64,000 bases of DNA from Eubacteriales bacterium (GCA_045632405.1 JAZQWO010000018.1:4832-68831), one strand, 5' to 3'. Positions 4,796 to 25,590 are shown, counted from the stretch's first letter. Notes: generated by a model from the letters alone, not told the origin. Translations and numbers: made by a program.

Positions 4796-4819
4796 GGGAA
4801 CGGTTGCGTTCCCTTTTTT
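4796..4819 (+). terminator. Intrinsic terminator
   Basis: gggaacg gttg cgttccc then TTTTTT. Confidence 0.7.
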
Positions 4820-4891
4820 GCGCATTTTTTAACAAAACCGCATATATGTGTGCTATAATTTACATAAGAAAAATATTTAAGGAGATTTGAT

Positions 4892-7063
4892 GTGGAAAAA
4901 TCACCTGAACAGATATTAAAGGAGCTGACTCTTGACCAAAAGATAGCTCAGCTTGTGGCTCACGGCTCTCCCTCTGATTTTGTAAAGGATAAACAGTTTG
5001 ACAGGGAATTTGCTTGTGAAAAATACCCAAACGGCATTTTCGGTCTTATGGTGCCAATAGATTTAGAGCCTGCCGAAATTGGTGCGTGGGCTTGCCAAAT
5101 GCTTGAGCATTTTGAGTCCGTTTCCCCCGTTCCCCCTGTTTTGATGTGTGAATCCCTACACGGTATATTGGGCAAGGGAACAACGGTTTTCCCTCAATCC
5201 ATCGGTATGGGCGCAACCTTTGACTCTGATTTGATGGAGCGCGTGGGCAAGGCAATCGGCGACGAGGCACGCGCCTTGGGAATTCGCTTGTCCTTAGCTC
5301 CCGACTTGGATCTTGGCAGAGAGCCGAGATGGGGCAGAATAGAGGAAACCTATGGCGAGGACTCCCACCTTGTCGGTATGATGGGCGAGGCCTACATAAA
5401 GGGACTTTTGGGAAATGATAAAAAATATGCCGCAACAATCAAGCACTTTGCCGCACACGGCTCGCCAAAGGCAGGTGTGAATTTGTCCTCTGTCACCGTG
5501 ACAGAAGGGGAGCTATGGGACAGATACCTGCCGCCATTTAAAAAAGCCTTGGATGCAGGGGCATACTGTGTTATGCCTGCGTACTCTATGCTAAATGGCG
5601 CACCCTGTCACGCAAGCCACCATTTGATGAACGAAATTCTAAGAGAAAAATTAGGCTTTGACGGTGTTGTGGTGTCAGATTTTGGTGCGATTGAAATGCT
5701 CACATATTTCCAATGCGTTGCAGAAAACCAGGAGCAGGCGGCGCAAATGTGCATTTCCTGTGGCATAGATGTTGAAGCGCCCGACGCTTGGGCGTATGGC
5801 AATAGCCTTAAAAAGCTAGTAGAAATCGGAAAAATTGACATTTCCGAAATCGATAAAATAGTGCTTCGTATTCTCAAATTAAAGGTAAGACTTGGACTTT
5901 TTGACCTGGAAAAGCCGAGCATCAAGAAAATTAACCGAGTTGTTCACTGCCAAAAGCATCTTGATCTTGCTAAAGAAGCAGCGCAAAAATCAATGGTTTT
6001 GCTCAAAAACAGCGGTGCACTTCCTCTTAAAAAGGACGCAAAAATTGCGGTTATAGGACCTAACGCATACAGTGCTCAGCTTGGGGACTATGCCTTGCCA
6101 AAGCCAAGCGCAAAAACACCTCTCGAAGCAATTGCCGAATATGCCGAAAAGCACGGTGGCGTGGTAAAGAGCGCCAAGGGCTGTGATGTTTACGGCACAG
6201 ATAAATCAGGTTTTTTTGAGGCTCTGGAAATTGCCAAGGATGCAGACACGGTGGTTTGCATAATAGGTGGCAAGAGCATGAAGGGCTACGGCGTTGGCTG
6301 GGGCAGTGAGGAAGAGGCTATTCTTACCTGTGGCGAGGGTTGCGATATGCACGACTTGACCCCGGGTGGAGTTCAACTCGATTTGGTACGGGAAATGATA
6401 AAAACAGGCAAGGACGTGGTTGTTGTTATGGTTGACGGCAGACCCGAAACACTGCACGATGTGGCAGATAGTTGCGGTGCGCTTGTGGCTGCCTGGTATC
6501 CTGGTGAGGTAGGCTCAGAAGCACTTGTCGAGCTGCTTTTTGGAGAATGCAATTTTTCAGCCAAGCTCCCTGTTACATTTCCTAAGCATACAGGTCAGCT
6601 GCCTCTTTGTTATGACGAGGTATATTCAAATTACGGCTTTTATCACTCACCGGGAACTCCCGAAAAGCCAGGACGTGATTATGTGTTTTGTGACACTCTG
6701 CCGCGTTTCCCCTTTGGCTACGGTCTTGGCTATTCTGCGCTTGTATATAACACATTGAACGTCAAATATGAAAACGATAAATTGACAGCTTGCGTAGAAA
6801 TTGAAAACAAGGGTGAGCGCTTGGCAGAGGAAAGTGTGCTTATATATATTCGTGACGAGGTGGCGTCTGTGCCACAGCCTGTGAAAAAGCTGGTGGCGGT
6901 TAAGAAAATCACTGTGGACGCAAAAGAAACAAAAAAAGCCTGCTTATCAATTCCCAAGGAAGAGCTTATGCTGACAGGACTTGATTTGCAAAAAAGGCTG
7001 GAAAGCGGCTGGTTTACAGTAATGACAGGCGAGCTTAGTGCGCGCATTTATATTGAAGATTAA
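4892..7063 (+). CDS. Glycoside hydrolase family 3 (BglX-type beta-glucosidase/xylosidase)
   Basis: GH3 motifs: KHFAAHG, GFDGVVVSDFGA, and a C-terminal domain with GEVGSEALVELLFG..KLPVTFP. GTG start with RBS aaggag. Confidence 0.8.
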   Translation: MEKSPEQILKELTLDQKIAQLVAHGSPSDFVKDKQFDREFACEKYPNGIFGLMVPIDLEPAEIGAWACQMLEHFESVSPVPPVLMCESLHGILGKGTTVFPQSIGMGATFDSDLMERVGKAIGDEARALGIRLSLAPDLDLGREPRWGRIEETYGEDSHLVGMMGEAYIKGLLGNDKKYAATIKHFAAHGSPKAGVNLSSVTVTEGELWDRYLPPFKKALDAGAYCVMPAYSMLNGAPCHASHHLMNEILREKLGFDGVVVSDFGAIEMLTYFQCVAENQEQAAQMCISCGIDVEAPDAWAYGNSLKKLVEIGKIDISEIDKIVLRILKLKVRLGLFDLEKPSIKKINRVVHCQKHLDLAKEAAQKSMVLLKNSGALPLKKDAKIAVIGPNAYSAQLGDYALPKPSAKTPLEAIAEYAEKHGGVVKSAKGCDVYGTDKSGFFEALEIAKDADTVVCIIGGKSMKGYGVGWGSEEEAILTCGEGCDMHDLTPGGVQLDLVREMIKTGKDVVVVMVDGRPETLHDVADSCGALVAAWYPGEVGSEALVELLFGECNFSAKLPVTFPKHTGQLPLCYDEVYSNYGFYHSPGTPEKPGRDYVFCDTLPRFPFGYGLGYSALVYNTLNVKYENDKLTACVEIENKGERLAEESVLIYIRDEVASVPQPVKKLVAVKKITVDAKETKKACLSIPKEELMLTGLDLQKRLESGWFTVMTGELSARIYIED

Positions 7064-8358: not shown

Positions 8359-10602
8359 ATGTCAGTTGAACGATATGAGGGTGGCCTTAGTTGGTCACCC
8401 CTTTTTTCAGCTTCAAAAAATGAAATTAGCGAGTTTTTAAGAGATTTATCAACAAATATTGAAAATCGCTTGGGATTACAAGACGTTGCCGTTAGACTTT
8501 CATACCACATTAAAATAGATGTTATGGATGAGGATGTTTTAGAGGCGATAAAGCGCGTAATATTCAAATATACGTTGGAATTTACTTCCTTTGCAAAGGA
8601 TGTACTAAGCGAGGACGAGCACGAGAAAGCATTTGACACCTATAAGAGAGAGCAGTTTAACAGTAATGCCTTGAATACGCTATTGAACTATTACTTGTGC
8701 GCTTGTGTGCGTTGGTTGCGCGAGAGTGAGCAATGGCTAAGCTTGTCGTTCCTTTTTTGGGGCGACATTAAAGAACAAACCGAAAAAATTAGAAATAAAA
8801 AGGTTGAAAAACAATATAGCCCGCTTAAAAAAGCTATTGAGAAAATTGCATCAGGAGTAAAGGCGCAGTGTTACTTAGATTCCAATAAGTATGCCTTATC
8901 TAAGTATCAGGTCTTAGGGGAAAGATTAAATAGCTACCTTGTTGAAAAGTATGGATATGATTTTAATAAGGTATCTCTTTACAGTGAGAATAGCTTTATG
9001 GGCTTTGACGGAAAAGCTAATGAGCTTTTAGAGCTTGCACTTCTTGATGACAAGGAGTTTTGGAGGACCAAGGACTTCAACGCTATCGTTTTTATAAACT
9101 CTATATATAAGAATAATAGTGAAAAGCACGCTCGAAAGGTGCTGGATTATATTTTATCCAAGATTACAAGCAACAGGCTTTTGGAAACTTTGATGGATAA
9201 CGGGTTATCGATCGGGTTATATGATAAGCAATCATATATTGATACCTATTCTAAAATGCTTACCCAAAATGGATATAGCACAGAGCTGATGTATCCGCTG
9301 GTTTCAGTTGAGAATGAAGAAGAAAAGTGTAGCCGTGGCAAAGAAATCTTTGAGAGCTTTTTGTATGGATATGTGTACCCAAATAACAAAGAGATTATAG
9401 AAGAAAGATTGCGTGGCAAATTAAACACTCCGGTTAAAAAGCTCTATACAATATTTGGAACGCTCAATTTCATCGTGACCGGTTTGAATATCACAGAAGA
9501 GTACGCAAGGGCGCTTGAGATTGTTTGTCCACAGTATTTTGCCGAAGAATCGCTTTGGAAAAGAGTATACTTAAAGACTTATGAAATGAGCTTGCGCATA
9601 GAGCAGGAACGGCTTTATTCGTTTATGTTTGAGGATTTTTACAATTTGTTTGCTGTTCTTGAATGGGAAACAGGAATAGAAACGGCTATTCAGCTTGACC
9701 TTGGCACAAGAAATGCGGCGTTAAACAAATTAAAGGAGCTTTTGAAGAGCTTCGACATAGAGATTTCAGATAAAATGGAATTGGATTATATAGCATCTCT
9801 TTTAGACAGAAAAAGCGCTAAGATGACCGAGGCGGAGCGTTTTCCTGTACTTGAACAGCTTGGAGATGCAATATATGGCTTTGCTGTTGCAGAAATGATT
9901 TTTTATAATCCGGATTATGATGATTATGCAGATGATGCTATGAATCCAAAGCAAAGATTTGAAAATTATATTTCTGCAAAGGGACAAATTAAAATTGTTG
10001 AAAAATACAATATAGACCAAATGTACATTTCGGCATCGTCTGTTTTGGGAAAAAATGATGAACATCTTGTAAACGGTGTGAATGATTATAACCGATGTGG
10101 TGAAACAAGCAAGGAAATTAAAAAGTATCTCGCAGACACCCTTGAGATGATTTTAGGAGCGGTAGCATTGGACAAGGGCTATGACGTGGCAATTGACCTG
10201 GCAAAGAAAATGATACGCGAAACATTTAAGGGAGACTTCCCAAGGGAGTTACACTATTCTTGTAAAGCTGTAGTGGAAAGCAAGGACGTTGACAGGGATT
10301 ATTGGATGAGAATACGACCTGGCATACATTGGTCATTAAATGAACTGCGAGATGTGTATAATCAGCTTATGATTGGCGCCTTTTATAAGTTGATGGCTTG
10401 CATTGTCTTTAAAACTGAGGGCATCAATGAAAGGCGAAAGATTTCTCACGTAAGCTACGATCTATTGGAGTGCTTTGACGTAGATGGCTATTTATACTCC
10501 ATTTCCCCTGCGTATTATTGCTATTTAACAGAGGGGCTTTATAAGGCTGTAGAGGCATTTGGTGAGCGCGCACTGAAAAAATACAAGGAAAAGAACAAAT
10601 AA
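8359..10602 (+). CDS. Large protein of unknown family carrying an RNase III catalytic domain (residues about 495-625)
   Basis: RNase III signature blocks FPVLEQLGDAIYGFAVAE (ExLGD) and KYLADTLEMILGAVALDKGY (DxxE..GA). The N-terminal ~490 aa and C-terminal ~120 aa are unrecognisable, and I see no dsRBD. Strong RBS. Confidence 0.7.
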   Translation: MSVERYEGGLSWSPLFSASKNEISEFLRDLSTNIENRLGLQDVAVRLSYHIKIDVMDEDVLEAIKRVIFKYTLEFTSFAKDVLSEDEHEKAFDTYKREQFNSNALNTLLNYYLCACVRWLRESEQWLSLSFLFWGDIKEQTEKIRNKKVEKQYSPLKKAIEKIASGVKAQCYLDSNKYALSKYQVLGERLNSYLVEKYGYDFNKVSLYSENSFMGFDGKANELLELALLDDKEFWRTKDFNAIVFINSIYKNNSEKHARKVLDYILSKITSNRLLETLMDNGLSIGLYDKQSYIDTYSKMLTQNGYSTELMYPLVSVENEEEKCSRGKEIFESFLYGYVYPNNKEIIEERLRGKLNTPVKKLYTIFGTLNFIVTGLNITEEYARALEIVCPQYFAEESLWKRVYLKTYEMSLRIEQERLYSFMFEDFYNLFAVLEWETGIETAIQLDLGTRNAALNKLKELLKSFDIEISDKMELDYIASLLDRKSAKMTEAERFPVLEQLGDAIYGFAVAEMIFYNPDYDDYADDAMNPKQRFENYISAKGQIKIVEKYNIDQMYISASSVLGKNDEHLVNGVNDYNRCGETSKEIKKYLADTLEMILGAVALDKGYDVAIDLAKKMIRETFKGDFPRELHYSCKAVVESKDVDRDYWMRIRPGIHWSLNELRDVYNQLMIGAFYKLMACIVFKTEGINERRKISHVSYDLLECFDVDGYLYSISPAYYCYLTEGLYKAVEAFGERALKKYKEKNK

Positions 10603-10649
10603 AACTGCTTAAATGACATACCTGCCAAAAAACTGTTTTTGGAGGAAAA

Positions 10650-14813: not shown

Positions 14814-16031
14814 TTACGCAAGCTTTGCTTCCAAGCGAGCTCTGATAGCCTTGATAAAGTCGGCTGTGTTAACGGCAGTTGCGGAAACGCCCTTTTCAAC
14901 AAGACCAACCAAGTCCTTTGTCATAATGCCGTCATTCAAGGTGTCAATGCAGGCACTCTCCAGCTTGTCTGCAAAGGCAACGAGGTCACAAAGACCGTCA
15001 AGTTCACCGCGCTTACGGAGCGCACCTGACCAAGCATAAATAGTTGCCATTGGGTTTGTTGATGTTTCCTCACCCTTCAAGTATCTGTAATAGTGGCGCG
15101 TAACTGTACCGTGTGCCGCCTCATACTCATACTTTCCGTCAGGTGAAACAAGAACAGAGGTCATCATAGCAAGAGAGCCAAAGGCAGTTGATACCATATC
15201 GGACATAACGTCACCGTCATAGTTCTTGCACGCCCAGATGTAGCCGCCCTCAGAACGGATAACTCTTGCCACCGCATCGTCAATAAGAGTATAGAAATAG
15301 GTAATTCCAAGCTCCTCAAACTTAGCCTTGTAGCACTCGTCGTAAATTTCCTGGAAAATGAGCTTGAAGGTTTGGTCGTACTGCTTTGAAATTGTGTCCT
15401 TTGTTGCAAACCACAAATCCTGCTTTGTGTTGATAGCATAGTTGAAGCAGGAATGTGCAAAGGACTTAATAGAGGAGTCCTTGTTGTACTGACCCTGCAA
15501 AACCCCTGGACACTCAAAATTGTAAATTTCCTTATTAAATACTTCGTTGCCTTCCTTGTCGGTAAAGGAAAGAGTTGCCTTGCCCTCAGTTGGCACGCGG
15601 AACTCCGTTGCCTTGTAAACATCACCGTATGCGTGACGTGCAATAGTGATTGGCTTTTTCCAGTTGCGAACCGCAGGCTTGATTGAGTCGATAAGAATGG
15701 GGGCTCTGAAAACAGTACCGTCTAAAATTGCACGGATTGTGCCGTTAGGGCTCTTCCACATTTCGGACAAATTATATTCCTCAACGCGCTGCTTGTTAGG
15801 TGTGATTGTGGCGCACTTAACGCTAACACCGTATTTCTGGTTAGCATAAGCCGCATCAAATGTAACCTGGTCCTTTGTCTTTTCGCGCTCAGGTAAGCCA
15901 AGGTCATAATATTCGGTCTTTAAATCTATAAAAGGAAGCAAAAGCTCATCCTTTATCATTTTCCAAATAATTCTTGTCATTTCGTCGCCATCCATCTCAA
16001 CGAGAGGGGTGGTCATTCTGATTTTTTCCAT
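14814..16031 (-). CDS. icd: NADP-dependent isocitrate dehydrogenase (type II, eukaryote-like)
   Basis: [35 protein letters not shown] pattern. Start set at the ATG at 16031 (RBS ggag); 405 aa. Confidence 0.85.
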
Positions 16032-16065
16032 AATCAAAAGCTCCTTCAATATTACTTCAAAGAGC

Positions 16066-16094
16066 ATTATACAACAATATAAATAATTTTTCAA
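16066..16094 (-). promoter_or_regulatory. Sigma-A type promoter for icd
   Basis: Minus strand: TTGAAA, 17-nt spacer, TATAAT. Confidence 0.5.
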
Positions 16095-16137
16095 TACCAA
16101 CACATAAAATAATAATGTAAAAATATGCGAAAAGTTG

Positions 16138-16166
16138 TTGACAAGCGGTGATAAAAGGTATATAAT
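16138..16166 (+). promoter_or_regulatory. Perfect-consensus sigma-A promoter, divergent from icd, facing the aryl-acid operon
   Basis: TTGACA, 17-nt spacer (agcggtgataaaaggta), TATAAT. Confidence 0.6.
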
Positions 16167-16247
16167 ATATTCTATCATATTATCACGATAAAGTGTGCGA
16201 TGCATACTTAGTGTATAAAATGAATATTTAATCGTAGGGAGAAAATT

Positions 16248-16298
16248 ATGTTCTATTTTGGTTACTTTTATTATTACTTTTACCACAAGATAGCATAG
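16248..16298 (+). CDS. Candidate leader peptide [16 protein letters not shown] (10 of 16 residues Phe/Tyr)
   Basis: RBS GGGAG 6 nt upstream of the ATG. Sits about 75 nt downstream of the consensus promoter, and a terminator hairpin starts 35 nt after its stop. Confidence 0.45.
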
Positions 16299-16332
16299 TT
16301 TTTTCGCGCGGTTATTGTTTTTTCTTGGATTT

Positions 16333-16356
16333 TACCGCCGATTTGGCGGTATTTTT
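16333..16356 (+). terminator. Intrinsic terminator/attenuator in the operon leader
   Basis: taccgcc gattt ggcggta followed by TTTTTaTTT. Confidence 0.55.
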
Positions 16357-16364
16357 ATTTGGTT

Positions 16365-16591
16365 CGGCTCTGCCCTTAACTCGTTGGTTTTTGATGGAAG
16401 TCTGCTTTGAAAAGCGCGGCATAACGCTCAGTTACAGACACTAAAGAGTATGCGCCTTCGCGTTTTGCGTGCTTTTCTGTGCACTCTTCTCATCAAATCG
16501 CGCAAAGCGCTAATCAACTCGTCTAAGAGCATAGCCTCACATTTTATCAGCGGCTCTGCCCAAACATTTTTGGGACATAGCCTCACATTTT
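16365..16591. repeat. Repeat-rich part of the leader
   Basis: Direct repeats cggctctgccc (16365, 16551) and catagcctcacatttt (16530, 16576), plus several short GC hairpins. Confidence 0.6.
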
Positions 16592-16609
16592 GAGCGAGAG
16601 GTTTTATTT

Positions 16610-18175
16610 ATGGCACTTGATTACATCATTTTGATGCTGTACGCGCTGGGTATGGTGGCAATTGCGTATTATTCACGCAAGAGGTCACAAAGCGTTGACG
16701 AGTTTTTGCATGCAGGCAAAAAGGGCGTTGGCGGTTGGATGAGCGCCTTTGCGTACGGTACTACATATTTTTCAGCGGTAATTTTTGTTGGCTATGCAGG
16801 TAAATTCGGCTCATCCTTCGGTCTTGCATCTGTTTGGATTGGTGTGGCTAACGCAATTTTCGGCGGCTTGGTTGCTTGGAAGGTGCTTGCAAAGCGCACA
16901 AAGAATATGACCGCCCGTCTTGAGTCAAAAACAATGCCTGACCTTTTTGAAAAAAGGTACGAGAGCAAAAATTTGAAAATCGCATCCGCTGTTATTATTT
17001 TCGTGTTTTTGATTCCGTATTCCGCATCTGTATATAGCGGTCTTTCCAATATATTTGAAATTGTCTTTGGTATTCCCGGCTGGACTGTTATGGTGGCATT
17101 GGCAGCCTTGACAGCTGTTTACCTGTTCTTCGGCGGCTACTTTGCAACAGCGGTTTCCGACTTTATTCAAGGCATCATTATGCTCGTTGGCGTTGCTTTG
17201 ATGGTTGTTTGGTTTATGAAGGACAAGCCAGACTGGTCACTTGACCTGCTCACCTCCAACAACAACCTTACCTGGTTTACATTTAACAGTGACAGCACAG
17301 GTATTTACGGTAGCACCGTTTCCTTGCTTTCATTGATAATTCTTACATCCTTTGGCGTTTGGGGCTTGCCACAGACAATCCACAAGTATTATGCTATCAG
17401 AGATAAAAAGGCAATTCAGCAGGGCACTATTGTCAGCACCATCTTTGCCTTGATTATCGGCTTTGGCGCATATTTCGTTGGTGCGCTTTATAAGTATTAC
17501 GAGAATGACATCACAGCCTTTCTTGTGAAAAACAACATTACATCAGGTGTGACAGATTACTTTATTCCCGTTATGCTAAAGCAGGTTATACCAACAGGTC
17601 TTATCGGTGTTATTGCGGTTCTTATTCTTTCCGCAAGCATGTCAACCTTAGCGTCTGTTTCCTTGTCCTCAGCATCTGCCTGCGCGGTAGATATTTACAA
17701 GGGCAAAATAAACAAGGATGCATCCGACAAGCAGGTTAACACCGTTATGCGTGTGCTTTGCGTTGTGTTTATCGGCATTTCCGTGCTTTTGGCGGTTTTG
17801 AACGAGGAGCTCGGCTTCTCTGCCATTGCCTATATGATGGGTCTTAGCTGGGGCACACTTGCAGGCTGCTTTATGGGTCCCTTTGTTGTTGGTCTTTTGT
17901 GGAAGGGCGTTACCAAAAAGGGCGCTTGGGCATCCATTATATCAACCCTAATACTAACCGCAGGACTTATCTTGTTCTTTGGCTACCACAAAAACGGCTT
18001 TGAATGTACATTTGGCAAGGCAATTACAACAGGTATTAACTGCTCACCCCTTATCGGCTGTATTTGCATGGCTACATCCGTTATCATTACAGTGGTTGTC
18101 AGCCTGTTTACAAAAAAGCCAAGTGATGAGGCAATTTATAACGCATTTGAAAAACCAATTGAAAACGAGGTTTAA
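16610..18175 (+). CDS. Sodium:solute symporter (SSS) family transporter
   Basis: About 13 TM segments; the N-terminal pattern YYSRK..SVDEFLHAGK..GGWMSAFAYGTTYFSAV is typical of the SSS family. Confidence 0.75.
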   Translation: MALDYIILMLYALGMVAIAYYSRKRSQSVDEFLHAGKKGVGGWMSAFAYGTTYFSAVIFVGYAGKFGSSFGLASVWIGVANAIFGGLVAWKVLAKRTKNMTARLESKTMPDLFEKRYESKNLKIASAVIIFVFLIPYSASVYSGLSNIFEIVFGIPGWTVMVALAALTAVYLFFGGYFATAVSDFIQGIIMLVGVALMVVWFMKDKPDWSLDLLTSNNNLTWFTFNSDSTGIYGSTVSLLSLIILTSFGVWGLPQTIHKYYAIRDKKAIQQGTIVSTIFALIIGFGAYFVGALYKYYENDITAFLVKNNITSGVTDYFIPVMLKQVIPTGLIGVIAVLILSASMSTLASVSLSSASACAVDIYKGKINKDASDKQVNTVMRVLCVVFIGISVLLAVLNEELGFSAIAYMMGLSWGTLAGCFMGPFVVGLLWKGVTKKGAWASIISTLILTAGLILFFGYHKNGFECTFGKAITTGINCSPLIGCICMATSVIITVVVSLFTKKPSDEAIYNAFEKPIENEV

Positions 18176-18177
18176 TT

Positions 18178-19482
18178 ATGATATTCGCAAAAGAAGAAAC
18201 CTTTACAAGGGAGCAAATGGAAAAGCTCCAGCTTGAAAGGCTTTTGGAAACTGTAAAAAGAGTATATGATAAGGTCTTACCTTACCGCAAAAAAATGGAT
18301 GAGCGCGGCATAAAGCCTGAGGACATAAAGAGCTTGGCTGACTTGTCAAAGCTCCCATTTGTAACAAAGCAGGACTTGCGTGACAACTATCCCTTCGGTC
18401 TTTTCGCAGTGCCTAAGGAGGATTTGGTAAGAATTCACGCATCCAGCGGTACAACAGGCAAGCCAACAGTTGTTGGCTATACCGACAGCGATATGGACAC
18501 CTGGACGGAGTGTGTTTCCCGTATTGCAGTGGCAGGCGGCGCTACCAAAAAGGACGTGGCGCAGATTTGCTTTGGCTACGGTATGTTCACAGGTGCTCTT
18601 GGCTTACACTACGGACTTGAAAATATTGGCGCTACCATTGTGCCCTCGTCCACAGGTAACTCTGAAAAGCAGCTTATGTATATGAAGGACTTTGGCACAA
18701 GCCTTCTTGTTGCAACTCCATCCTACGCCCTTCGCTTAGCCGAGGTGGCAAGGGAAATGGGTATGGACCCGAAAACAGATTTGAACGTAAAAATCGCTCT
18801 TGTGGGCAGTGAAATGCTGACAGATGCTATGCGTGAGGAAATGCACAAATACTGGGGCGAGGATATGAAAATCACCTCTAACTACGGTATGAGCGAGCTG
18901 ATGGGTCCTGGCGTTTCCGGTGAGTGCGAGTATATGTGCGGTATGCATATTAACGAGGACTTTTTCATCCCTGAAATTATCAACCCCGAAACAGGAGAGG
19001 TTTTGCCTGCGGGTGAATGGGGTGAGCTTGTTATCACCTGTATAAAGAAAGAGGCGCTTCCTTTGATACGATACAGAACAAAGGACATAACAAGACTTAT
19101 TTATGAGCCTTGTAAATGCGGCAGAACAACGGTGAGAATGGAAAATCTTTCGGGCAGAAGCGACGATATGCTCAAAATCCGTGGCGTTAACGTGTTCCCA
19201 AGCCAGATTGAAGAGGTTATTCTCGGCACAGAGGGTCTTGGTCCTCACTACGAAATCATTGTTGAGCGTGACGGCTATGCAGATAAGCTTAGCGTTCGTG
19301 TTGAGCTTGCAACTGCAACAGACTCATTTAAGGTGCTTGAAAATATTGAACGTACAGTTAAGAACAAGCTGAAGGTTATTCTCGGCTTGGATGCAAAGGT
19401 GATTTTGGAGTCCCCCAACACCTTGGCAAGATTTGAAGGAAAAGCGAAGAGAGTTCGCGATTTGAGAAAGGAACAGAAATAA
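18178..19482 (+). CDS. paaK: Phenylacetate-CoA ligase family protein (PaaK paralog 1)
   Basis: HASSGTTGKPTVV AMP-binding motif; YRTKD; size 434 aa. Confidence 0.8.
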   Translation: MIFAKEETFTREQMEKLQLERLLETVKRVYDKVLPYRKKMDERGIKPEDIKSLADLSKLPFVTKQDLRDNYPFGLFAVPKEDLVRIHASSGTTGKPTVVGYTDSDMDTWTECVSRIAVAGGATKKDVAQICFGYGMFTGALGLHYGLENIGATIVPSSTGNSEKQLMYMKDFGTSLLVATPSYALRLAEVAREMGMDPKTDLNVKIALVGSEMLTDAMREEMHKYWGEDMKITSNYGMSELMGPGVSGECEYMCGMHINEDFFIPEIINPETGEVLPAGEWGELVITCIKKEALPLIRYRTKDITRLIYEPCKCGRTTVRMENLSGRSDDMLKIRGVNVFPSQIEEVILGTEGLGPHYEIIVERDGYADKLSVRVELATATDSFKVLENIERTVKNKLKVILGLDAKVILESPNTLARFEGKAKRVRDLRKEQK

Positions 19483-19483
19483 T

Positions 19484-21226
19484 ATGGCAGAAAAGATAAT
19501 TATGCTTGGTAACGAGGCAATTGCCCGCGGTGCATTTGAAGCGGGAGTAAAGGTTAGCAGCTCCTATCCGGGAACACCAAGCACAGAAATAAGCGAATAT
19601 TTGGCAAAATATGATGAGGTATATACAGAGTGGGCACCTAACGAAAAGGTAGCTCTTGAGGCAGCGGCAGGCGCATCTATTGCAGGTGTGCGCTCAATGG
19701 CTTGCATGAAGCACGTTGGCTTGAACGTGGCATCAGACCCTCTTTATACCCTTGCATACACAGGTGTAAATGCAGGTCTTGTTATCGTCGTTGCAGACGA
19801 CCCAGGTCTTGCATCCTCACAGAACGAGCAGGACACACGTATGATTGCAAGAAGTGCGCACTTGCCTGTTGTTGAGCCAAGTGACAGTGACGAGGCAAGA
19901 GCGTTCTTTAAGTACGCAATGGAGCTTTCCGAAAAGTACGACACCCCTGTTATTTTCAGAACAACCACAAAGCTCTCTCACTCACAGTCTATTGTAAATC
20001 TTGAAGACAGGGTAGTACCTGAGGACAAGGTATATGAAAGAACAGTTCCAAAGTACGTTATGATGCCTGGCTCTGCAATTGGCAGACACGTTGTAGTTGA
20101 AAAGAGAGAAATACAGATGGAAAAGGACGCATCCTCTTTCCCTGTTAATAAGGTTGAATATAACGACAAGAAGATAGGCTTTATCACATCAGGTATTCCT
20201 TATCAGTATGTAAAGGAGGCTTGCCCAAATGCAAGCGTATTGAAGCTTGGTGTTGTTAATCCCCTTCCTCGTGCTCTTATTGAGGAATTCTGCAAGAATG
20301 TAGAAACAGTATATATCTTTGAGGAGCTTGAGCCTGTAATTGAAGAGCAGGTAAGAGCTTGGGGCATTACTAACTTGAAGGGCAAGGAGTGCTTTACAAA
20401 GCAGGGTGAATACAGTGCAAATATGCTTCGCCGTGTTCTTGTTGGCTGCACAGACTGTACATACGAAAAGGCACAGGCGCCTGCCCGTCCACCTATTCTT
20501 TGTCCTGGCTGTCCACACAGAAGCACATTCTCCGTGCTTAACAAGCTGAAAATCCACGCATCAGGCGATATTGGATGCTATACCCTTGGCGCAGTAGCTC
20601 CACTTAACGTAATTGATACAACAATTTGTATGGGCTCATCCATTTCCTTGCTTCACGGTATGGAAAAGGCAAAGGGCAAGGACTACATAAAGAATTGGGT
20701 TGCCACAATCGGCGACTCCACATTCCTTCACACAGGCGTTAACTCCCTTATCAATATGGTTTACAACAAGTCAACCGCAACGGTTATGATTCTTGACAAC
20801 CGCACAACAGGTATGACAGGACATCAGGAGCACGCGGCAACAGGCAAGACCTTGAAGGGAGAGGACACATATGCTATTGATTTGGCAGCGCTTTGTAAGT
20901 CTATTGGTGTGCCAAACGTAATTACAGTTGATGCCTTTGACGTTGTAGAGATGGAAAAGGTGATTAAGGAAAGCGTGGCAAGTGATGAGCTTACAGTTAT
21001 TATTGCAAAGGCTCCTTGCGCACTCTTAAAGGGAATGAAATTCACAACCAAGTGCTATGTAGATGCTGAAAAGTGCAAAAAGTGCGGTATGTGTATGAAG
21101 ATAGGCTGTCCTGCAATGACCAAAAATGCGGACGGTACAGTAAGAATTGACGAAACAATGTGTAACGGCTGCGGACTTTGCAAGAACTACTGCAAGTTTG
21201 GCGCTATCAACACAAAGGAAGCATAA
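19484..21226 (+). CDS. iorA: Indolepyruvate:ferredoxin oxidoreductase alpha subunit
   Basis: TPP-enzyme N-terminus GNEAIARGAFEAGV..SSYPGTPSTE; C-terminal 2x[4Fe-4S] CKKCGMCMKIGCP / CNGCGLCKNYC. Confidence 0.85.
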   Translation: MAEKIIMLGNEAIARGAFEAGVKVSSSYPGTPSTEISEYLAKYDEVYTEWAPNEKVALEAAAGASIAGVRSMACMKHVGLNVASDPLYTLAYTGVNAGLVIVVADDPGLASSQNEQDTRMIARSAHLPVVEPSDSDEARAFFKYAMELSEKYDTPVIFRTTTKLSHSQSIVNLEDRVVPEDKVYERTVPKYVMMPGSAIGRHVVVEKREIQMEKDASSFPVNKVEYNDKKIGFITSGIPYQYVKEACPNASVLKLGVVNPLPRALIEEFCKNVETVYIFEELEPVIEEQVRAWGITNLKGKECFTKQGEYSANMLRRVLVGCTDCTYEKAQAPARPPILCPGCPHRSTFSVLNKLKIHASGDIGCYTLGAVAPLNVIDTTICMGSSISLLHGMEKAKGKDYIKNWVATIGDSTFLHTGVNSLINMVYNKSTATVMILDNRTTGMTGHQEHAATGKTLKGEDTYAIDLAALCKSIGVPNVITVDAFDVVEMEKVIKESVASDELTVIIAKAPCALLKGMKFTTKCYVDAEKCKKCGMCMKIGCPAMTKNADGTVRIDETMCNGCGLCKNYCKFGAINTKEA

Positions 21227-21239
21227 GGGGGTACATATA

Positions 21240-21800
21240 ATGAATATTATGATAGTTGGCGTTGGCGGACAGGGTACTCTCTTGACCAGCAGAATTATTG
21301 GTAAAACAGCCTTGGCAGCAGGCTATGACGTTAAGCTCTCTGAGGTGCACGGTATGGCACAGCGCGGAGGTAGCGTTGTTACATTTGTTCGCTTTGACAA
21401 AAAGGTTTACGAGCCTGTATGCGAGGAGGGCACAGTTGACGTGCTTATCTCCTTTGAGCGACTTGAAGCATTAAGATATGCTCATTTCTTGAAAAAGGAT
21501 GGCGTAATGATTGTAAATGATGCAAAAATCGAGCCAATGACAGTAGTTGTAGGCGCGGCTAAGTATCCCGAAAATATTATCGAGGGTCTTTCCGAGGCGC
21601 ACAAGCTCTTCGTTCTTGACGCAGGCGCTATTGCAAAGGAGCTTGGCAACGCAAAGGTGCTTAACACTGTGGTGCTTGGTCTTGCGGCAAAGCATATCGG
21701 CTTTGATAAGAGCGAGTGGGTGGGCGTGCTTCAGGCAACAGTTCCACCAAAGACTATTGAAATTAACACAGCTGCATTCAACCGTGGCTACGACCTATAA
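21240..21800 (+). CDS. iorB: Indolepyruvate:ferredoxin oxidoreductase beta subunit
   Basis: Start at the ATG at 21240 (RBS aaggggg). IVGVGGQGTLL..SEVHGMAQRGGSV motif. Confidence 0.8.
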   Translation: MNIMIVGVGGQGTLLTSRIIGKTALAAGYDVKLSEVHGMAQRGGSVVTFVRFDKKVYEPVCEEGTVDVLISFERLEALRYAHFLKKDGVMIVNDAKIEPMTVVVGAAKYPENIIEGLSEAHKLFVLDAGAIAKELGNAKVLNTVVLGLAAKHIGFDKSEWVGVLQATVPPKTIEINTAAFNRGYDL

Positions 21801-21818
21801 AAAAGAAGGTAAAAGCAT

Positions 21819-23117
21819 ATGATTTGGAACGAAAAAATGGAGTGTATGTCCAGTGAGGACAAAAAGGCGCTCCAGAGTGAAAGACTTGTTAAGCTTGTAA
21901 AATACGTTTATGACAATGTTGAATTTTACCGCAACAGAATGGACGAGTATGGCGTTAAGCCTGAGGACATTAAGTCAATTGACGATATTGTGAAGCTTCC
22001 ATATACAACAAAAAATGACCTTCGTGACACATATCCATTCGGCTTGTTTGCGGCACCTAAGTCTGATATTGTAAGAATTCACGCGTCATCCGGTACAACA
22101 GGCAAGGCAACAGTTGTTTGCTACACCCAAAAGGATATTGACGACTGGAGTGAGTGCGTTGCCCGCTGTATGTCAATGGCAGATGTTACAAAGGATGATA
22201 TCATTCAGGTAGCATATGGCTACGGCTTGTTCACAGGCGGTCTTGGTGCTCATTACGGTGCGGAAAAGGTTGGCGCTATGGTTGTGCCTATGAGTACAGG
22301 CAACTCCAAAAAGCTCACCACAATGATGGTTGACTTTGGCGCAACGGCAATTGCCTGCACCCCTTCATATCTTTTGCATCTTTCCGAGGTGCTTCGTGAC
22401 GAGGGACTTCTTGACAAAATCAAATTAAAGGCGGCTATTTGCGGTGCTGAGCCTTGGACAGAGAAAATGAGAAACGAGATTGAAGCTCGCTTGAACATTA
22501 CCGCCCACGATATTTACGGCCTTTCCGAAATTATGGGTCCTGGCGTTGCCTGCGACTGTAAGCACCACACAGGTCTTCACATTTGTGACGACTATTTCTA
22601 TCCCGAAATTATCGACCCTAAAACTCTTGAGCCTGTCCGTGACGGTGAAACAGGCGAGCTTGTTTTCACAACTCTTACAAAAGAGGGTATTCCGCTTATC
22701 CGTTACAGAACAAAGGACTTGACAAGCATCACACACGAAAGATGCGAGTGCGGAAGAACAAGCGCAAGAATTTCACGCTTCAAGGGCAGAAGCGACGATA
22801 TGCTTATTATTCGCGGCGTTAACGTGTTCCCGTCACAGGTTGAGGCGGCGCTGGTTGACGTAGAGGAGGTAACACCTCACTATATGATGATAGTTGACCG
22901 CGAAAACAATCTTGACAGCCTTGAAATTCAGGTTGAGGTTGATGTTAAGTATTATACCGATGAAATCCGCGGTATTGAAAAGCTGACAAAGAAGATAGCA
23001 GGCGTTATTCAAGGTGCGCTTGGTATCAGCGCAAAGATTAAGCTGATGGGTCCTAACTCCTTGCCAAGAAGCGAGGGTAAGGCAGTCCACGTAATTGATA
23101 ACAGAAAGCTATATTAA
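21819..23117 (+). CDS. paaK: Phenylacetate-CoA ligase family protein (PaaK paralog 2)
   Basis: HASSGTTGKATVV, YRTKD; colinear with paralog 1. Confidence 0.8.
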   Translation: MIWNEKMECMSSEDKKALQSERLVKLVKYVYDNVEFYRNRMDEYGVKPEDIKSIDDIVKLPYTTKNDLRDTYPFGLFAAPKSDIVRIHASSGTTGKATVVCYTQKDIDDWSECVARCMSMADVTKDDIIQVAYGYGLFTGGLGAHYGAEKVGAMVVPMSTGNSKKLTTMMVDFGATAIACTPSYLLHLSEVLRDEGLLDKIKLKAAICGAEPWTEKMRNEIEARLNITAHDIYGLSEIMGPGVACDCKHHTGLHICDDYFYPEIIDPKTLEPVRDGETGELVFTTLTKEGIPLIRYRTKDLTSITHERCECGRTSARISRFKGRSDDMLIIRGVNVFPSQVEAALVDVEEVTPHYMMIVDRENNLDSLEIQVEVDVKYYTDEIRGIEKLTKKIAGVIQGALGISAKIKLMGPNSLPRSEGKAVHVIDNRKLY

Positions 23118-23131
23118 GGAGGACTATACAA

Positions 23132-23560
23132 ATGACAGTTAATCAGGTTTCCGTTTTTATAGAAAACAGACAGGGCAGACTTGGCGAGGTTTTGCAGGTT
23201 TTGAAGGACAATGATGTGAACATTTTGTCTATCTCCTTGGCAGACACAACCGAGTACGGTCTTTTAAGACTTATTGTTAATAAGCCGGAGCACGCACGAG
23301 ATGTGCTTTTAGAGGCAGGCTTTTCCAGCATGCTCACAGAGGTTCTTATTGTTAAGGTTCCTCACGTGGCAGGCTCACTTCAGAGCATTTTGTCCGCTAT
23401 TGCAAAGGCTAATGTAAGCATTGAGTATATGTACGGCTTGAGCGTTGAAACGACAGATGCATCTATCGTTATGAAAACAAACGAGCTTGAGGAGGCTTGC
23501 TCCGTGCTCAAAAACATCCACGTTGACACAATGACAAGTGAGGAGATCAGCTCCCTTTAA
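23132..23560 (+). CDS. ACT domain protein
   Basis: Two ACT-like halves (VSVFIENRQGRLGEV.., LIVKVPHVAGSLQSI..); a usual partner of paaK genes. Confidence 0.65.
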   Translation: MTVNQVSVFIENRQGRLGEVLQVLKDNDVNILSISLADTTEYGLLRLIVNKPEHARDVLLEAGFSSMLTEVLIVKVPHVAGSLQSILSAIAKANVSIEYMYGLSVETTDASIVMKTNELEEACSVLKNIHVDTMTSEEISSL

Positions 23561-23562
23561 CA

Positions 23563-24372
23563 ATGGTTATTGATTTCCATACTCACGTTTTCCCCGACAA
23601 AATTGCAGAGAAAACAATTTCTGCTCTTTCTAAAACAGGCGGCATTCCCGCCCATTCAAGCGGGGGGTTGAGCGGACTTTTGGCAAGTATGGACGAATAC
23701 GGCATTGATGTGAGCATCAATCTGCCCGTCCTTACAAGGCCCACGCAAATAGAGAGCGTTTTCGGCTTTGCCGACACAATAAACAAAGAAAATCTAACAC
23801 AGGGTAGGGTCATTTCCTTTTGTGGCGTACATCCTATGATGGAAAACAGTGAGGAGTGGCTCGAAAAAATCAAGGAAAGCGGCTTTTTGGGGATTAAAAT
23901 TCACCCCGACTATCAAGGCACATTCTTTGACGACCCTGCGTATATCAGAATTTTGAAAAAAGCCAAGGCGCTTGACTTAGTTACAGTGACTCACGCGGGC
24001 TTTGACTGTGCCTTTGTGGGGCGGGAAATCAAATGCACGCCACATCGTGTGCTTCACGCTCTTGATATGCTTGGGGGATACGACAAGCTTGTTCTTGCAC
24101 ACCTTGGTGGAAATGAGCTTTTCGACAGTGTGTACAACGAATTGGCAGGGGAGAGTGTCTATTTTGACACCTCGTATGTGTTACCCTTTTTGAGCAGGAC
24201 TCAGATTGAAAAGATGATTGCAAGGCACGGAGAGGACAAAATACTTTTCGCCAGCGACAGTCCTTGGCAAAATCAAGGCGAAATGGTGAGCATTTTGAAA
24301 TCATGTAGCTTAGGCGCAAGCACAGAAAACAAGATTTTTTGCGAAAATGCCCGAAAATTACTGAAAATATAG
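23563..24372 (+). CDS. Amidohydrolase-family (TIM-barrel metal hydrolase) protein
   Basis: IDFHTHVFP N-terminal metal motif; ..HLGG.., ..FASDSPW. Confidence 0.6.
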   Translation: MVIDFHTHVFPDKIAEKTISALSKTGGIPAHSSGGLSGLLASMDEYGIDVSINLPVLTRPTQIESVFGFADTINKENLTQGRVISFCGVHPMMENSEEWLEKIKESGFLGIKIHPDYQGTFFDDPAYIRILKKAKALDLVTVTHAGFDCAFVGREIKCTPHRVLHALDMLGGYDKLVLAHLGGNELFDSVYNELAGESVYFDTSYVLPFLSRTQIEKMIARHGEDKILFASDSPWQNQGEMVSILKSCSLGASTENKIFCENARKLLKI

Positions 24373-24379
24373 GTGAATT

Positions 24380-25564
24380 ATGTTAAATGAAAAAATGCTT
24401 GCTTTAGGTAGCAAGCGCTCCATAATCAGAGAAATTTTTGAATATTGTAAGACCCGCGCTGCCGAAATCGGTGCAGATAAGGTTTTTGACTTCAGCATCG
24501 GTAACCCAAGCGTTGAGCCGCCAAAGGAGATTGAAAACGCAATTAAGGATTTGCTTGAAAACGCAAGCCCTGTGTTGCTCCACGGCTATACATCCGCACA
24601 GGGTGACCTTGGTGTGCGCACAGCAATTGCTGACGAAATCAATGCCAAATTCGGCGCAGGTGTGAACGCAAACAGTATTTATATGACCTGTGGCGCGGCT
24701 GCATCTCTTACCATTTCCCTGCGCGCTCTTTTGAACGCGGGCGAGGAGTGCGTGGTTTTTGCCCCATTCTTTACAGAATACCGCGTGTTTATCGAAAACG
24801 CAGGGGGACGTGTGGTTGTTTCCAAGCCAATGGAAAAAACCTTTCAGATTGATGTTTGCGATTTTGAGTCTAAAATTACAGAAAACACGAAAGCGGTTAT
24901 TATGAACTCACCAAACAACCCAAGCGGAGTTGTTTACAGTGAGGAAACTATCAAGGCGGTTTGCGCCGTTCTTGAAAAGAAGCAGGCAGAGTACGGTCAT
25001 CCAATCTTCTTGATTGCTGACGAGCCATACAGAGAGCTTGTTTTCGGTGACGTGACAGTTCCATATTTAATGAACTATTATGATAACACAGTAGTGTGCT
25101 ACTCATACTCCAAGGCACTTTCCTTGCCGGGTGAGAGAATTGGCTATATTGCAGTTTGCCCTCGCGCACAGGATGCCACAAGTGTGTATCTTGCGGTTTG
25201 TGGCGCAGGTAGAAGCCTTGGCTACGTTTGCGCGCCAAGCCTTTTCCAGCAGGTAATCAAAAACACTATTGGTGCAAAGGTTGACGTTAATATCTACAAG
25301 GAAAACAGAGATATTTTGTATAATGCCTTGACCGAATACGGCTACGAGTGCGTTCAGCCCGACGGTGCGTTCTACCTTTTTGTGAAGGCTCTTGAGGATG
25401 ATGCATACAAATTCTTTGAAAAGGCAAAATCAAAGGAAATTTTGGTTGTTCCTTGCGACGACTTTGGCGTTTCTGGCTATGTGAGAATTGCCTACTGCGT
25501 TGACAAGCAAAGAATTGTAAATGCCTTGCCAGCATTCAAGGCTTTGGCAGAGGAATATAAATGA
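24380..25564 (+). CDS. PLP-dependent class I/II aminotransferase
   Basis: FSIGNPS, NSPNNPSG, and YSYSKALSLPGERIGY (PLP lysine). Confidence 0.8.
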   Translation: MLNEKMLALGSKRSIIREIFEYCKTRAAEIGADKVFDFSIGNPSVEPPKEIENAIKDLLENASPVLLHGYTSAQGDLGVRTAIADEINAKFGAGVNANSIYMTCGAAASLTISLRALLNAGEECVVFAPFFTEYRVFIENAGGRVVVSKPMEKTFQIDVCDFESKITENTKAVIMNSPNNPSGVVYSEETIKAVCAVLEKKQAEYGHPIFLIADEPYRELVFGDVTVPYLMNYYDNTVVCYSYSKALSLPGERIGYIAVCPRAQDATSVYLAVCGAGRSLGYVCAPSLFQQVIKNTIGAKVDVNIYKENRDILYNALTEYGYECVQPDGAFYLFVKALEDDAYKFFEKAKSKEILVVPCDDFGVSGYVRIAYCVDKQRIVNALPAFKALAEEYK

Positions 25565-25590
25565 AAAAGTGACCGCAAGGTCACTTTTTT
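25564..25590 (+). terminator. Intrinsic terminator at the end of the aryl-acid operon
   Basis: aagtgacc gcaa ggtcactt then TTTT. Confidence 0.75.

Follow-up and report, generated by a model that had tools for sequence, protein, structure and literature searches.

The stretch of DNA considered here, which comprises 64,000 nucleotides (nt) from a Eubacteriales bacterium (GCA_045632405.1, JAZQWO010000018.1:4832-68831) and will be called the window, carries a short transcript leader between a consensus promoter and an eight-gene operon for the uptake and conversion of aryl acids and aromatic amino acids. Judged from its sequence, this leader is very probably a ribosome-mediated leader-peptide transcription attenuator made of four regions, where the translation of a 16-codon open reading frame (ORF) rich in Phe and Tyr codons would gauge how much charged tRNA-Phe and tRNA-Tyr is available. 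Directly visible in the genomes compared are the sequence elements, the degree to which they are conserved, and the pairings between them that exclude one another. The Phe/Tyr leader family, its Tyr specificity, and its target operon appear to be undescribed so far, whereas the mechanism itself is a classical one with precedents in Firmicutes. The elements of the leader are the following:

16138-16166, plus strand: predicted sigma-70-type promoter with 12/12 matches to the consensus (-35 TTGACA at 16138-16143, spacer of 17, -10 TATAAT at 16161-16166).
16175-16223, plus strand: 5' segment of the leader transcript, predicted to form a hairpin in the minimum free energy (MFE) fold.
16229-16251, plus strand: region 1, the 5' strand of a hairpin enclosing the ORF, which holds the Shine-Dalgarno sequence (SD) and the start codon and pairs with 16293-16313.
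16237-16241, plus strand: SD GGGAG, 6 nt 5' of the ATG.
16248-16298, plus strand: leader ORF of 16 codons, from ATG to TAG, with 10/16 residues being Phe or Tyr (4 Phe and 6 Tyr).
16251-16259 and 16263-16283, plus strand: regulatory Phe/Tyr codons within the leader ORF.
16306-16314, plus strand: region 2, the GCGG box (GCGCGGTTA), whose GCGGT at 16308-16312 has two alternative partners, region 1 and ACCGC at 16334-16338.
16333-16359, plus strand: intrinsic terminator (regions 3 and 4), with the stem TACCGCC/GGCGGTA and the loop GATTT at 16333-16351, followed by the T-run TTTTTATTT.

Much of this architecture had been recognized in a first-pass annotation of the window, including the perfect promoter, divergent from the minus-strand icd gene, the ribosome-binding site followed by the Phe/Tyr-rich ORF, and the terminator behind it. 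All of these are found again, save that the terminator, with a hairpin energy of -11.2 kcal/mol, begins 34 nt past the stop codon of the leader and not 35. Transcription would start at about 16173, as suggested by the position of the promoter. The motifs TTGACA and GGTATATAATATATT and their spacing are kept in the related loci L004 and L081-L083, and the leaders of other clades have comparable TTGACA/TATAAT pairs on their 5' side. The absence of any further promoter ahead of the transporter start at 16610, also claimed in that annotation, holds on the plus strand from 16167 onwards, where no promoter-like site matches at least 9/12 positions. The segment 16175-16223 is variable in sequence among close relatives, and the leaders of other clades have no such segment because their promoter lies only 25-35 nt from the ATG.

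The first-pass annotation had also warned that Phe and Tyr codons might have arisen by accident in a T-rich context, and the segment from 16167 to 16332 does contain 44% T. When this segment was shuffled 20,000 times with its dinucleotides preserved, and ATG-started ORFs of 8-40 amino acids were counted, at least six Phe, Tyr, or Trp per ten residues were obtained in 2.3% of the shuffles and at least nine in 0/20,000. The T-rich context alone is thus no explanation for the ORF, since the shuffles never match its Phe/Tyr density. The only other ATG-started ORF of the window with at least six of these residues per ten lies on the minus strand at 10539-10619 (MSFKQFYLFFSLYFFSARSPNASTAL), and is probably a product of chance.

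The conservation of the mini-ORF upstream of orthologous operons, a check already proposed in the first-pass annotation, provides a first line of evidence for the attenuator. Homologues of the SSS transporter, the first gene of the operon, are counted in thousands; the comparison set was defined by scanning one genome per species, resulting in 80 loci with SSS orthologues that are 63-73% identical. Nearly all of them come from uncultured Clostridia of the guts of ruminants and other animals, mostly as metagenome-assembled genomes from ruminant guts. Both strands of these loci, 759 kb in total and thus 1.5 Mb of sequence, were scanned for ATG-started ORFs of 8-40 codons with at least six Phe, Tyr, or Trp in a ten-residue stretch. 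Out of the 19 qualifying ORFs, 12 share one position, on the coding strand and 76-109 nt 5' of the SSS start, and these complete Phe/Tyr-rich ORFs are 13-24 codons long. Examples of the leader peptides among the scanned loci are MFYFSYYFSFYFRIES, MKYNKFAYYYGYYYNLK, MFAYFYYYEYYLNFNTIPI, MKKNTSYYYAYYYFGNYYFESFQF, MKLDARFNFYYAYYFYYYFE, and MYYFYPVYEFYYYHLT; in another three, whose contigs are truncated, the 3' portion of a Phe/Tyr leader is seen. The closer relatives L081-L083, reached via the protein database, carry the leader with variant peptides such as MFYFGYFFYYFYHINA, the leader peptide of L004 is identical to that of the window, and the conspecific strains L205-L208 encode the window's peptide with synonymous differences only. 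Beyond the window, this adds up to 22 loci with a Phe/Tyr-rich mini-ORF and a terminator upstream of SSS-PaaK-IorAB-PaaK, and overall to at least 23 instances, spread over 18 or more separate genomes or metagenome lineages.

What is conserved in these leaders is their composition rather than their sequence. In the 16 complete ones, 150 of the 277 residues are Phe or Tyr (54%; 94 Tyr and 56 Phe), with a single Trp, and the ATG, the SD, the frame, and the stop codon that shortly precedes the GCGG box are kept in 16/16 despite differing nucleotide sequences. Within the window's own clade, the promoter, the SD, a 12-codon aromatic run, and the box behind the stop codon are conserved, while the 5' untranslated region (UTR) and the last four codons diverge; all the substitutions in the aromatic run are either synonymous or exchanges between Tyr and Phe. 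A composition that is kept while the sequence is free shows that selection acts on the identity of the codons, and not on the peptide or on the RNA sequence. In addition, an intrinsic terminator precedes the SSS start by 17-60 nt in every leader-bearing locus. The comparison with related genomes therefore supports the interpretation as a leader-peptide attenuator made in the first place.

The second line of evidence concerns the RNA. The stretch from the stop codon to the terminator is AT-rich and unalignable across leaders, and its sole conserved element is the GCGG box, located 1-19 nt past the stop codon in 19/19 leaders (9 nt in the window), although in composition-matched shuffled spacers GCGG appears by chance in a mean of only 1.6% per leader. 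When each leader was folded separately, beginning with the stop codon and finishing with the 5' arm of the terminator, the box paired with the CCGC of this arm in 17/19 MFE folds, the other two using the adjacent GGCUAAA register. The flanking pair covaries, being GCGGU:ACCGC in the window versus GCGGA:UCCGC in L082 and L083, and this change is uncompensated in the 3' arm of the terminator. The GCGGU/ACCGC pairing had been noticed before as a weak alternative. The pairing does exist, but its conservation in all 19 leaders checked goes against the verdict of weakness, and we therefore take it to be the antiterminator. Across leaders, the antiterminators range from -7 to -15 kcal/mol, as compared to -7 to -14 kcal/mol for the terminators. 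Since MAFFT, applied to the 19 divergent 3' leader segments, misaligned the CCGC box in five of them, anchored comparisons and per-sequence folds were used here instead of formal pair counts.

The fold of 16173-16365, a stretch close to the one whose folding was likewise proposed as a check in the first-pass annotation (16173-16360), gives a z-score of -5.1. It includes a long hairpin joining the SD and start codon to the surroundings of the stop codon (16229-16251/16293-16313, about -25 kcal/mol), overlooked until now, which is recovered with two compensatory pairs in the RNAalifold consensus of the window clade. Region 1 takes a different form in seven other leaders, where the partner of the GCGG box is an Ala, Arg, Cys, or Pro-Val codon inside the Tyr/Phe stretch, and two leaders have an MFE fold without any pairing between region 1 and this box. 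Taken as a whole, the leader presents four of the features by which classical attenuators are recognized: an ORF preceded by an SD, a cluster of regulatory codons, a terminator, and, near the stop codon, an antiterminator that shares a strand with it.

According to the mechanism we propose, transcription would start at the consensus promoter, and a ribosome would bind to the exposed SD and translate the 16-codon leader while the RNA polymerase transcribes the downstream segments. With plentiful Phe and Tyr, the ribosome would reach the UAG, overlapping the beginning of region 2 (the GCGG box), or alternatively it would be released and the very stable pairing between regions 1 and 2 would form again; in either case, region 3 would pair with region 4, and the resulting terminator would stop transcription ahead of the transporter gene. 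Upon scarcity of charged tRNA-Phe or tRNA-Tyr, the ribosome would instead stall within the ten Phe/Tyr codons, masking region 1 and leaving region 2 free, so that GCGGU would capture ACCGC once the 5' arm of the terminator has been transcribed. The terminator would then not be formed, and the eight genes would be read through. As the hairpin between regions 1 and 2 hides the SD in the window clade, only ribosomes loaded during the transcription of the leader could take part in this process.

The operon under the control of the leader is delimited as follows:

16610-25564, plus strand: genes for the SSS transporter, a PaaK-like protein, IorA, IorB, a second PaaK-like protein, an ACT-pair protein, an amidohydrolase_2 protein, and an aminotransferase, as assigned by Pfam and NCBIfam.
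25564-25589: hairpin after the aminotransferase gene, with an 11-bp stem (AAAAAGTGACC-GCAA-GGTCACTTTTT) and A/T runs on both sides, which is probably a bidirectional terminator at the end of the operon.

These Pfam and NCBIfam matches agree with the eight-gene make-up given in the first-pass annotation, and both IorA and IorB score above the NCBIfam equivalog cut-offs. The genes are separated by 1-18 nt, and the order SSS-PaaK-IorA-IorB-PaaK is kept in most of the 80 related loci. An operon switched on by Phe/Tyr starvation would most probably supply Phe and Tyr by salvaging aryl acids. In such a route, the SSS transporter would import phenylacetate and 4-hydroxyphenylacetate, the two AMP-forming PaaK-like ligases would convert them into CoA thioesters, and IorAB, working in reverse, would carry out the reductive carboxylation to arylpyruvates, to be finally transaminated to Phe and Tyr. 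The signals of the attenuator would be Tyr and Phe, not Trp, and one might speculate that the two ligase paralogues correspond to the two aryl-acid substrates. The synthesis of aromatic amino acids from aryl acids via IOR is mentioned for Methanococcus maripaludis in PMC4162585, citing Porat et al., and the reductive carboxylation of phenylacetate by rumen bacteria in PMC6827263, citing Allison 1969. The oxidative fermentation of aromatic amino acids in Clostridia, in turn, obtains its ATP via a phosphotransacylase and a kinase (PMC13285125) and not via AMP-forming ligases, which are a poor fit with an ATP-yielding fermentation.

Several observations weigh against the attenuator as drawn above, or against the function we assign to it. 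The antiterminator of the window is short, with 5 bp and -8.2 kcal/mol against the -11.2 kcal/mol of the terminator, and being the weaker of the two it could win only kinetically, as in classical attenuators. In five leaders, the GCGG box lies 14-19 nt past the stop codon, outside the reach of a terminating ribosome. Because region 1 of the window clade is the SD/start region, it would be left uncovered by a ribosome that stops at the final Tyr codons. The leader is present in only about 15 of the 78 informative genome loci (about 19% of the orthologous operons), and L008 and L009, whose Icd is 93-94% identical to that of the window, have the same divergent promoter region with a short, plain 5' UTR and no leader. 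Finally, the metabolic direction is deduced only from the regulatory logic and the type of ligase.

As for the distribution, the tree of SSS transporters concentrates the leaders in one large clade, the window clade, and L013, with leaderless loci interspersed among them, and a search of 13 leaderless orthologous loci at the Rfam gathering thresholds found no RNA element replacing the leader. Such patchiness suggests an element that is readily gained or lost, as others have noted for attenuators (PMC2965389).

Among the alternative explanations, the one that best withstands the evidence is that of a nascent regulatory peptide of another kind, either a ligand-sensing arrest peptide like TnaC or a sensor of slowed translation like those of ermC and cat. 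The operon would then answer to an excess of ligand (free Phe/Tyr or an aryl acid) or to translation stress, rather than to tRNA charging. The geometry of the leader demands only that a ribosome pauses within the ORF, the sequence by itself being silent on the cause, and induction by a substrate would suit a catabolic reading of IorAB and PaaK. However, arrest peptides rely on fixed residues and spacing, while the length (13-24 amino acids), the residue order, and the C-terminus all vary here; what marks a starvation-sensing leader, moreover, is a run of codons for only one or two amino acids, and the AMP-forming ligases are ill-suited to an ATP-yielding fermentation (PMC13285125). We thus consider this explanation improbable.

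It is also conceivable, but very improbable, that the ORF is incidental and that the GCGG box and the terminator constitute a switch worked by a protein or by a small-molecule-binding RNA. The T-richness of the leaders would favor this, as would the fact that the strictly invariant nucleotides are those of the GCGG/CCGC boxes and not those of the ORF. An incidental ORF would nevertheless hardly maintain its ATG, SD, frame, and stop codon in all the complete leaders, nor restrict the substitutions of its aromatic run to synonymous changes and exchanges of Tyr and Phe. It is equally at odds with the common position of 12 of the 19 qualifying ORFs and with the shuffles, which never attain the observed Phe/Tyr density. 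Metagenome contigs were searched with the DNA pattern TATTATTAY-N(12-42)-GCGGTT-N(11-41)-ACCGCC for the same leader ahead of other genes, and a Phe/Tyr ORF with a terminator was present in 0/80 of the matches listed, which look like chance matches and serve here as a negative control; the lack of a match to any Rfam family points in the same direction.

Some transporters of the SSS family are encoded beside small accessory membrane proteins, and the leader peptide, hydrophobic and aromatic, could be seen as a functional micro-peptide of this sort, for instance a small membrane partner of the SSS transporter, with the hairpin being the terminator of its own transcript. This is scarcely credible for a peptide of 13-24 residues, too short to span the membrane, which has no conserved positions beyond its composition, is separated from its supposed partner by a terminator that would uncouple their expression, is missing next to about 80% of the orthologous transporters, and would leave the conserved alternative pairing with the 5' arm of the terminator without a role. 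On the evidence against each of them, the micro-peptide and the chance ORF are rejected, and leader-peptide attenuation in response to tRNA charging is the interpretation retained in what follows.

The surroundings of the attenuator hold two further features of interest:

14814-16034, minus strand: Icd, divergent from the operon, in its version of 406 amino acids.
16365-16561, plus strand: insertion of 186 bp, consisting of a 175-bp element plus the 11-bp direct repeat CGGCTCTGCCC (repeats at 16365-16375 and 16551-16561).

The insertion, another feature missed in the first-pass annotation, sits between the terminator of the attenuator and the ribosome-binding site of the SSS gene, that is, outside the attenuator but on the read-through transcript. 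The window and L205 carry it; the conspecific L206-L208, as well as L004 and L081-L083, do not. With its fold into a long imperfect hairpin (z-score of -4.1), which enlarges a small hairpin native to this place, it looks like a miniature inverted-repeat transposable element (MITE) or a palindromic element. No promoter-like site was detected inside it, and the stretch of 254 nt that includes it (16356-16609) has no second copy in the window or the loci, no plasmid match, and no Rfam match. Also in this region, the homology between the window and L004 ends immediately past the T-run of the terminator, and their identity is a mosaic, with 96% for Icd, 91% for the first PaaK, and 92% for IorA, but only 73% for the SSS transporter, suggesting that the transporter gene was replaced or diverged rapidly.

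On the other side of the promoter, the longest ORF for Icd on the minus strand encodes 490 amino acids (14814-16286) and crosses its own promoter region, reaching the leader ORF. This version is annotated across the leader in public records, L206 being one of them. It is an over-extension, since the Iso_dh domain fills the 406-residue version and most relatives agree with a start at 16034. Just 5' of the leader SD, or elsewhere in the 5' UTR, several loci (L013, the leaderless L002, L083, and L004) have an ARG-box-like palindrome (TGAATAATTATTCR, consensus TGAATwwwwATTCA), of which the window holds a degenerate copy at 16221-16234 (TGAATATTTAATCG). This palindrome may be the operator of a transcription factor, and occurs 1.56 times per kb upstream of SSS genes versus 0.06 per kb elsewhere, a comparison confounded by the AT-rich composition of intergenic regions.

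Other arrangements are found at some of the orthologous loci. At L016, the 5' leader (4800-5000) is of another type, about 190 nt long and GC-richer, ends in the terminator TCCGCC...GGCGGA, and contains neither a Phe/Tyr ORF nor an Rfam match; an attenuator of a different sort may occupy this place there. A shorter form of the operon, SSS-PaaK-ACT, without IorAB directly downstream, is present in L031, L035, L036, L045, L048, L049, L060, L061, L067, L069, L071, L072, and L079, many of them labelled Candidatus Scatosoma, and none of these 13 loci has a Phe/Tyr leader. In the window, a gene for a BspA-type leucine-rich-repeat protein (25679-27793) lies beyond the hairpin that follows the operon.

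The main interest of the attenuator lies in its bearing on the direction of a common gut-bacterial operon. Operons with IOR, PaaK, and a transporter are common in gut and rumen Clostridia, where they are usually read as those of producers of phenylacetate and indoleacetate, metabolites relevant to the host. Control that turns the operon on under starvation would mean that its most probable task is to build aromatic amino acids out of aryl acids, and not to ferment them. On balance, and with some reserve, we are inclined to see in the window the founding example of an undescribed family of Tyr/Phe leader-peptide attenuators from rumen and gut Clostridia, perhaps the first with a mainly Tyr leader, controlling an anabolic SSS-PaaK-IorAB-PaaK(-ACT-amidohydrolase-aminotransferase) operon. 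If this is true, it would provide a genetic basis and a regulatory signature for the assimilation of aryl acids by rumen bacteria, known physiologically since the 1960s, and would advise caution before calling the IOR/PaaK operons of gut metagenomes phenylacetate producers. The patchy leader, together with a strain-polymorphic insertion behind its terminator, further illustrates how quickly such control elements are gained, lost, and disturbed.

Regarding the known systems, an Rfam search of 15000-18000 with E <= 10 returned noise only, with no Phe_leader, T-box, or other leader family, and the T-box motif (as a regular expression of the GGTGNNACCRCG type) is absent from the 450 nt upstream of all 80 SSS genes. 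T-boxes are the usual control of aromatic amino acid genes in Firmicutes (PMC1262725, PMC2494555), and a comparative survey found tyrosine genes to be controlled by T-boxes and phenylalanine genes to be controlled by attenuators only in Proteobacteria (PMC1262725). The T-box riboswitches for Tyr and Phe share with the present leader the signal, which is the charging of tRNA-Tyr and tRNA-Phe, and the output, antitermination that acts on an intrinsic terminator of the 5' leader; they differ in that the T-box binds the uncharged tRNA directly, without translation, while the proposed sensor here is the translating ribosome. Arrest peptides of the TnaC type, for their part, need fixed conserved residues and Rho-dependent termination, in contrast to the conservation of composition only and the intrinsic terminator found here. 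The aryl-acid route of M. maripaludis and rumen bacteria shares with our proposal the enzyme logic from aryl acetate to aryl-acetyl-CoA, arylpyruvate, and amino acid; as mentioned in the sources cited above, these reports deal with the pathway and not with its regulation, and the same direction would be a deduction for the present organisms.

Closer to the attenuator in both mechanism and phylum are the Leu-rich leader peptide of the ilv-leu operon in Staphylococcus aureus (PMC5794164) and, in bacilli, the His leader that precedes hisZ/hisS paralogues (PMC2965389). They are likewise lineage-restricted and replace or coexist with other controls, but they respond to Leu/Ile and His, precede other operons, and are unrelated in sequence. 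Leader-peptide attenuation, called classically proteobacterial in the first-pass annotation, extends beyond Proteobacteria, having been reported or predicted in Firmicutes too (PMC2965389, PMC5794164), and a Firmicutes host is no surprise given these documented cases. Our literature search found no Phe/Tyr leader peptide for Firmicutes, none for this operon, and no Tyr-rich leader; the aromatic (Tyr and Phe) leader, which is well supported, would join a short list of classical Firmicutes attenuators in a place where T-boxes are expected.

The nearest counterparts in terms of the amino acids sensed are pheL-pheA and pheM-pheST from Escherichia coli and other Gammaproteobacteria, gathered in the Rfam family Phe_leader, of which the window element is not a member, having no homology in sequence or structure at E <= 10. 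It differs from them in its Tyr codons, which exceed those for Phe (94 to 56), in its host, an uncultured lineage of Clostridia, in its target, an operon for aryl-acid uptake, IOR, and aminotransferase instead of pheA or pheST, and in its region 1, which in the window clade is the SD/start region. What they have in common is a Phe-rich leader ORF, an antiterminator and a terminator that exclude each other, a position between the promoter and genes for aromatic amino acid supply, and expression that is, or in the present case would be, turned on when the charged tRNA becomes scarce.

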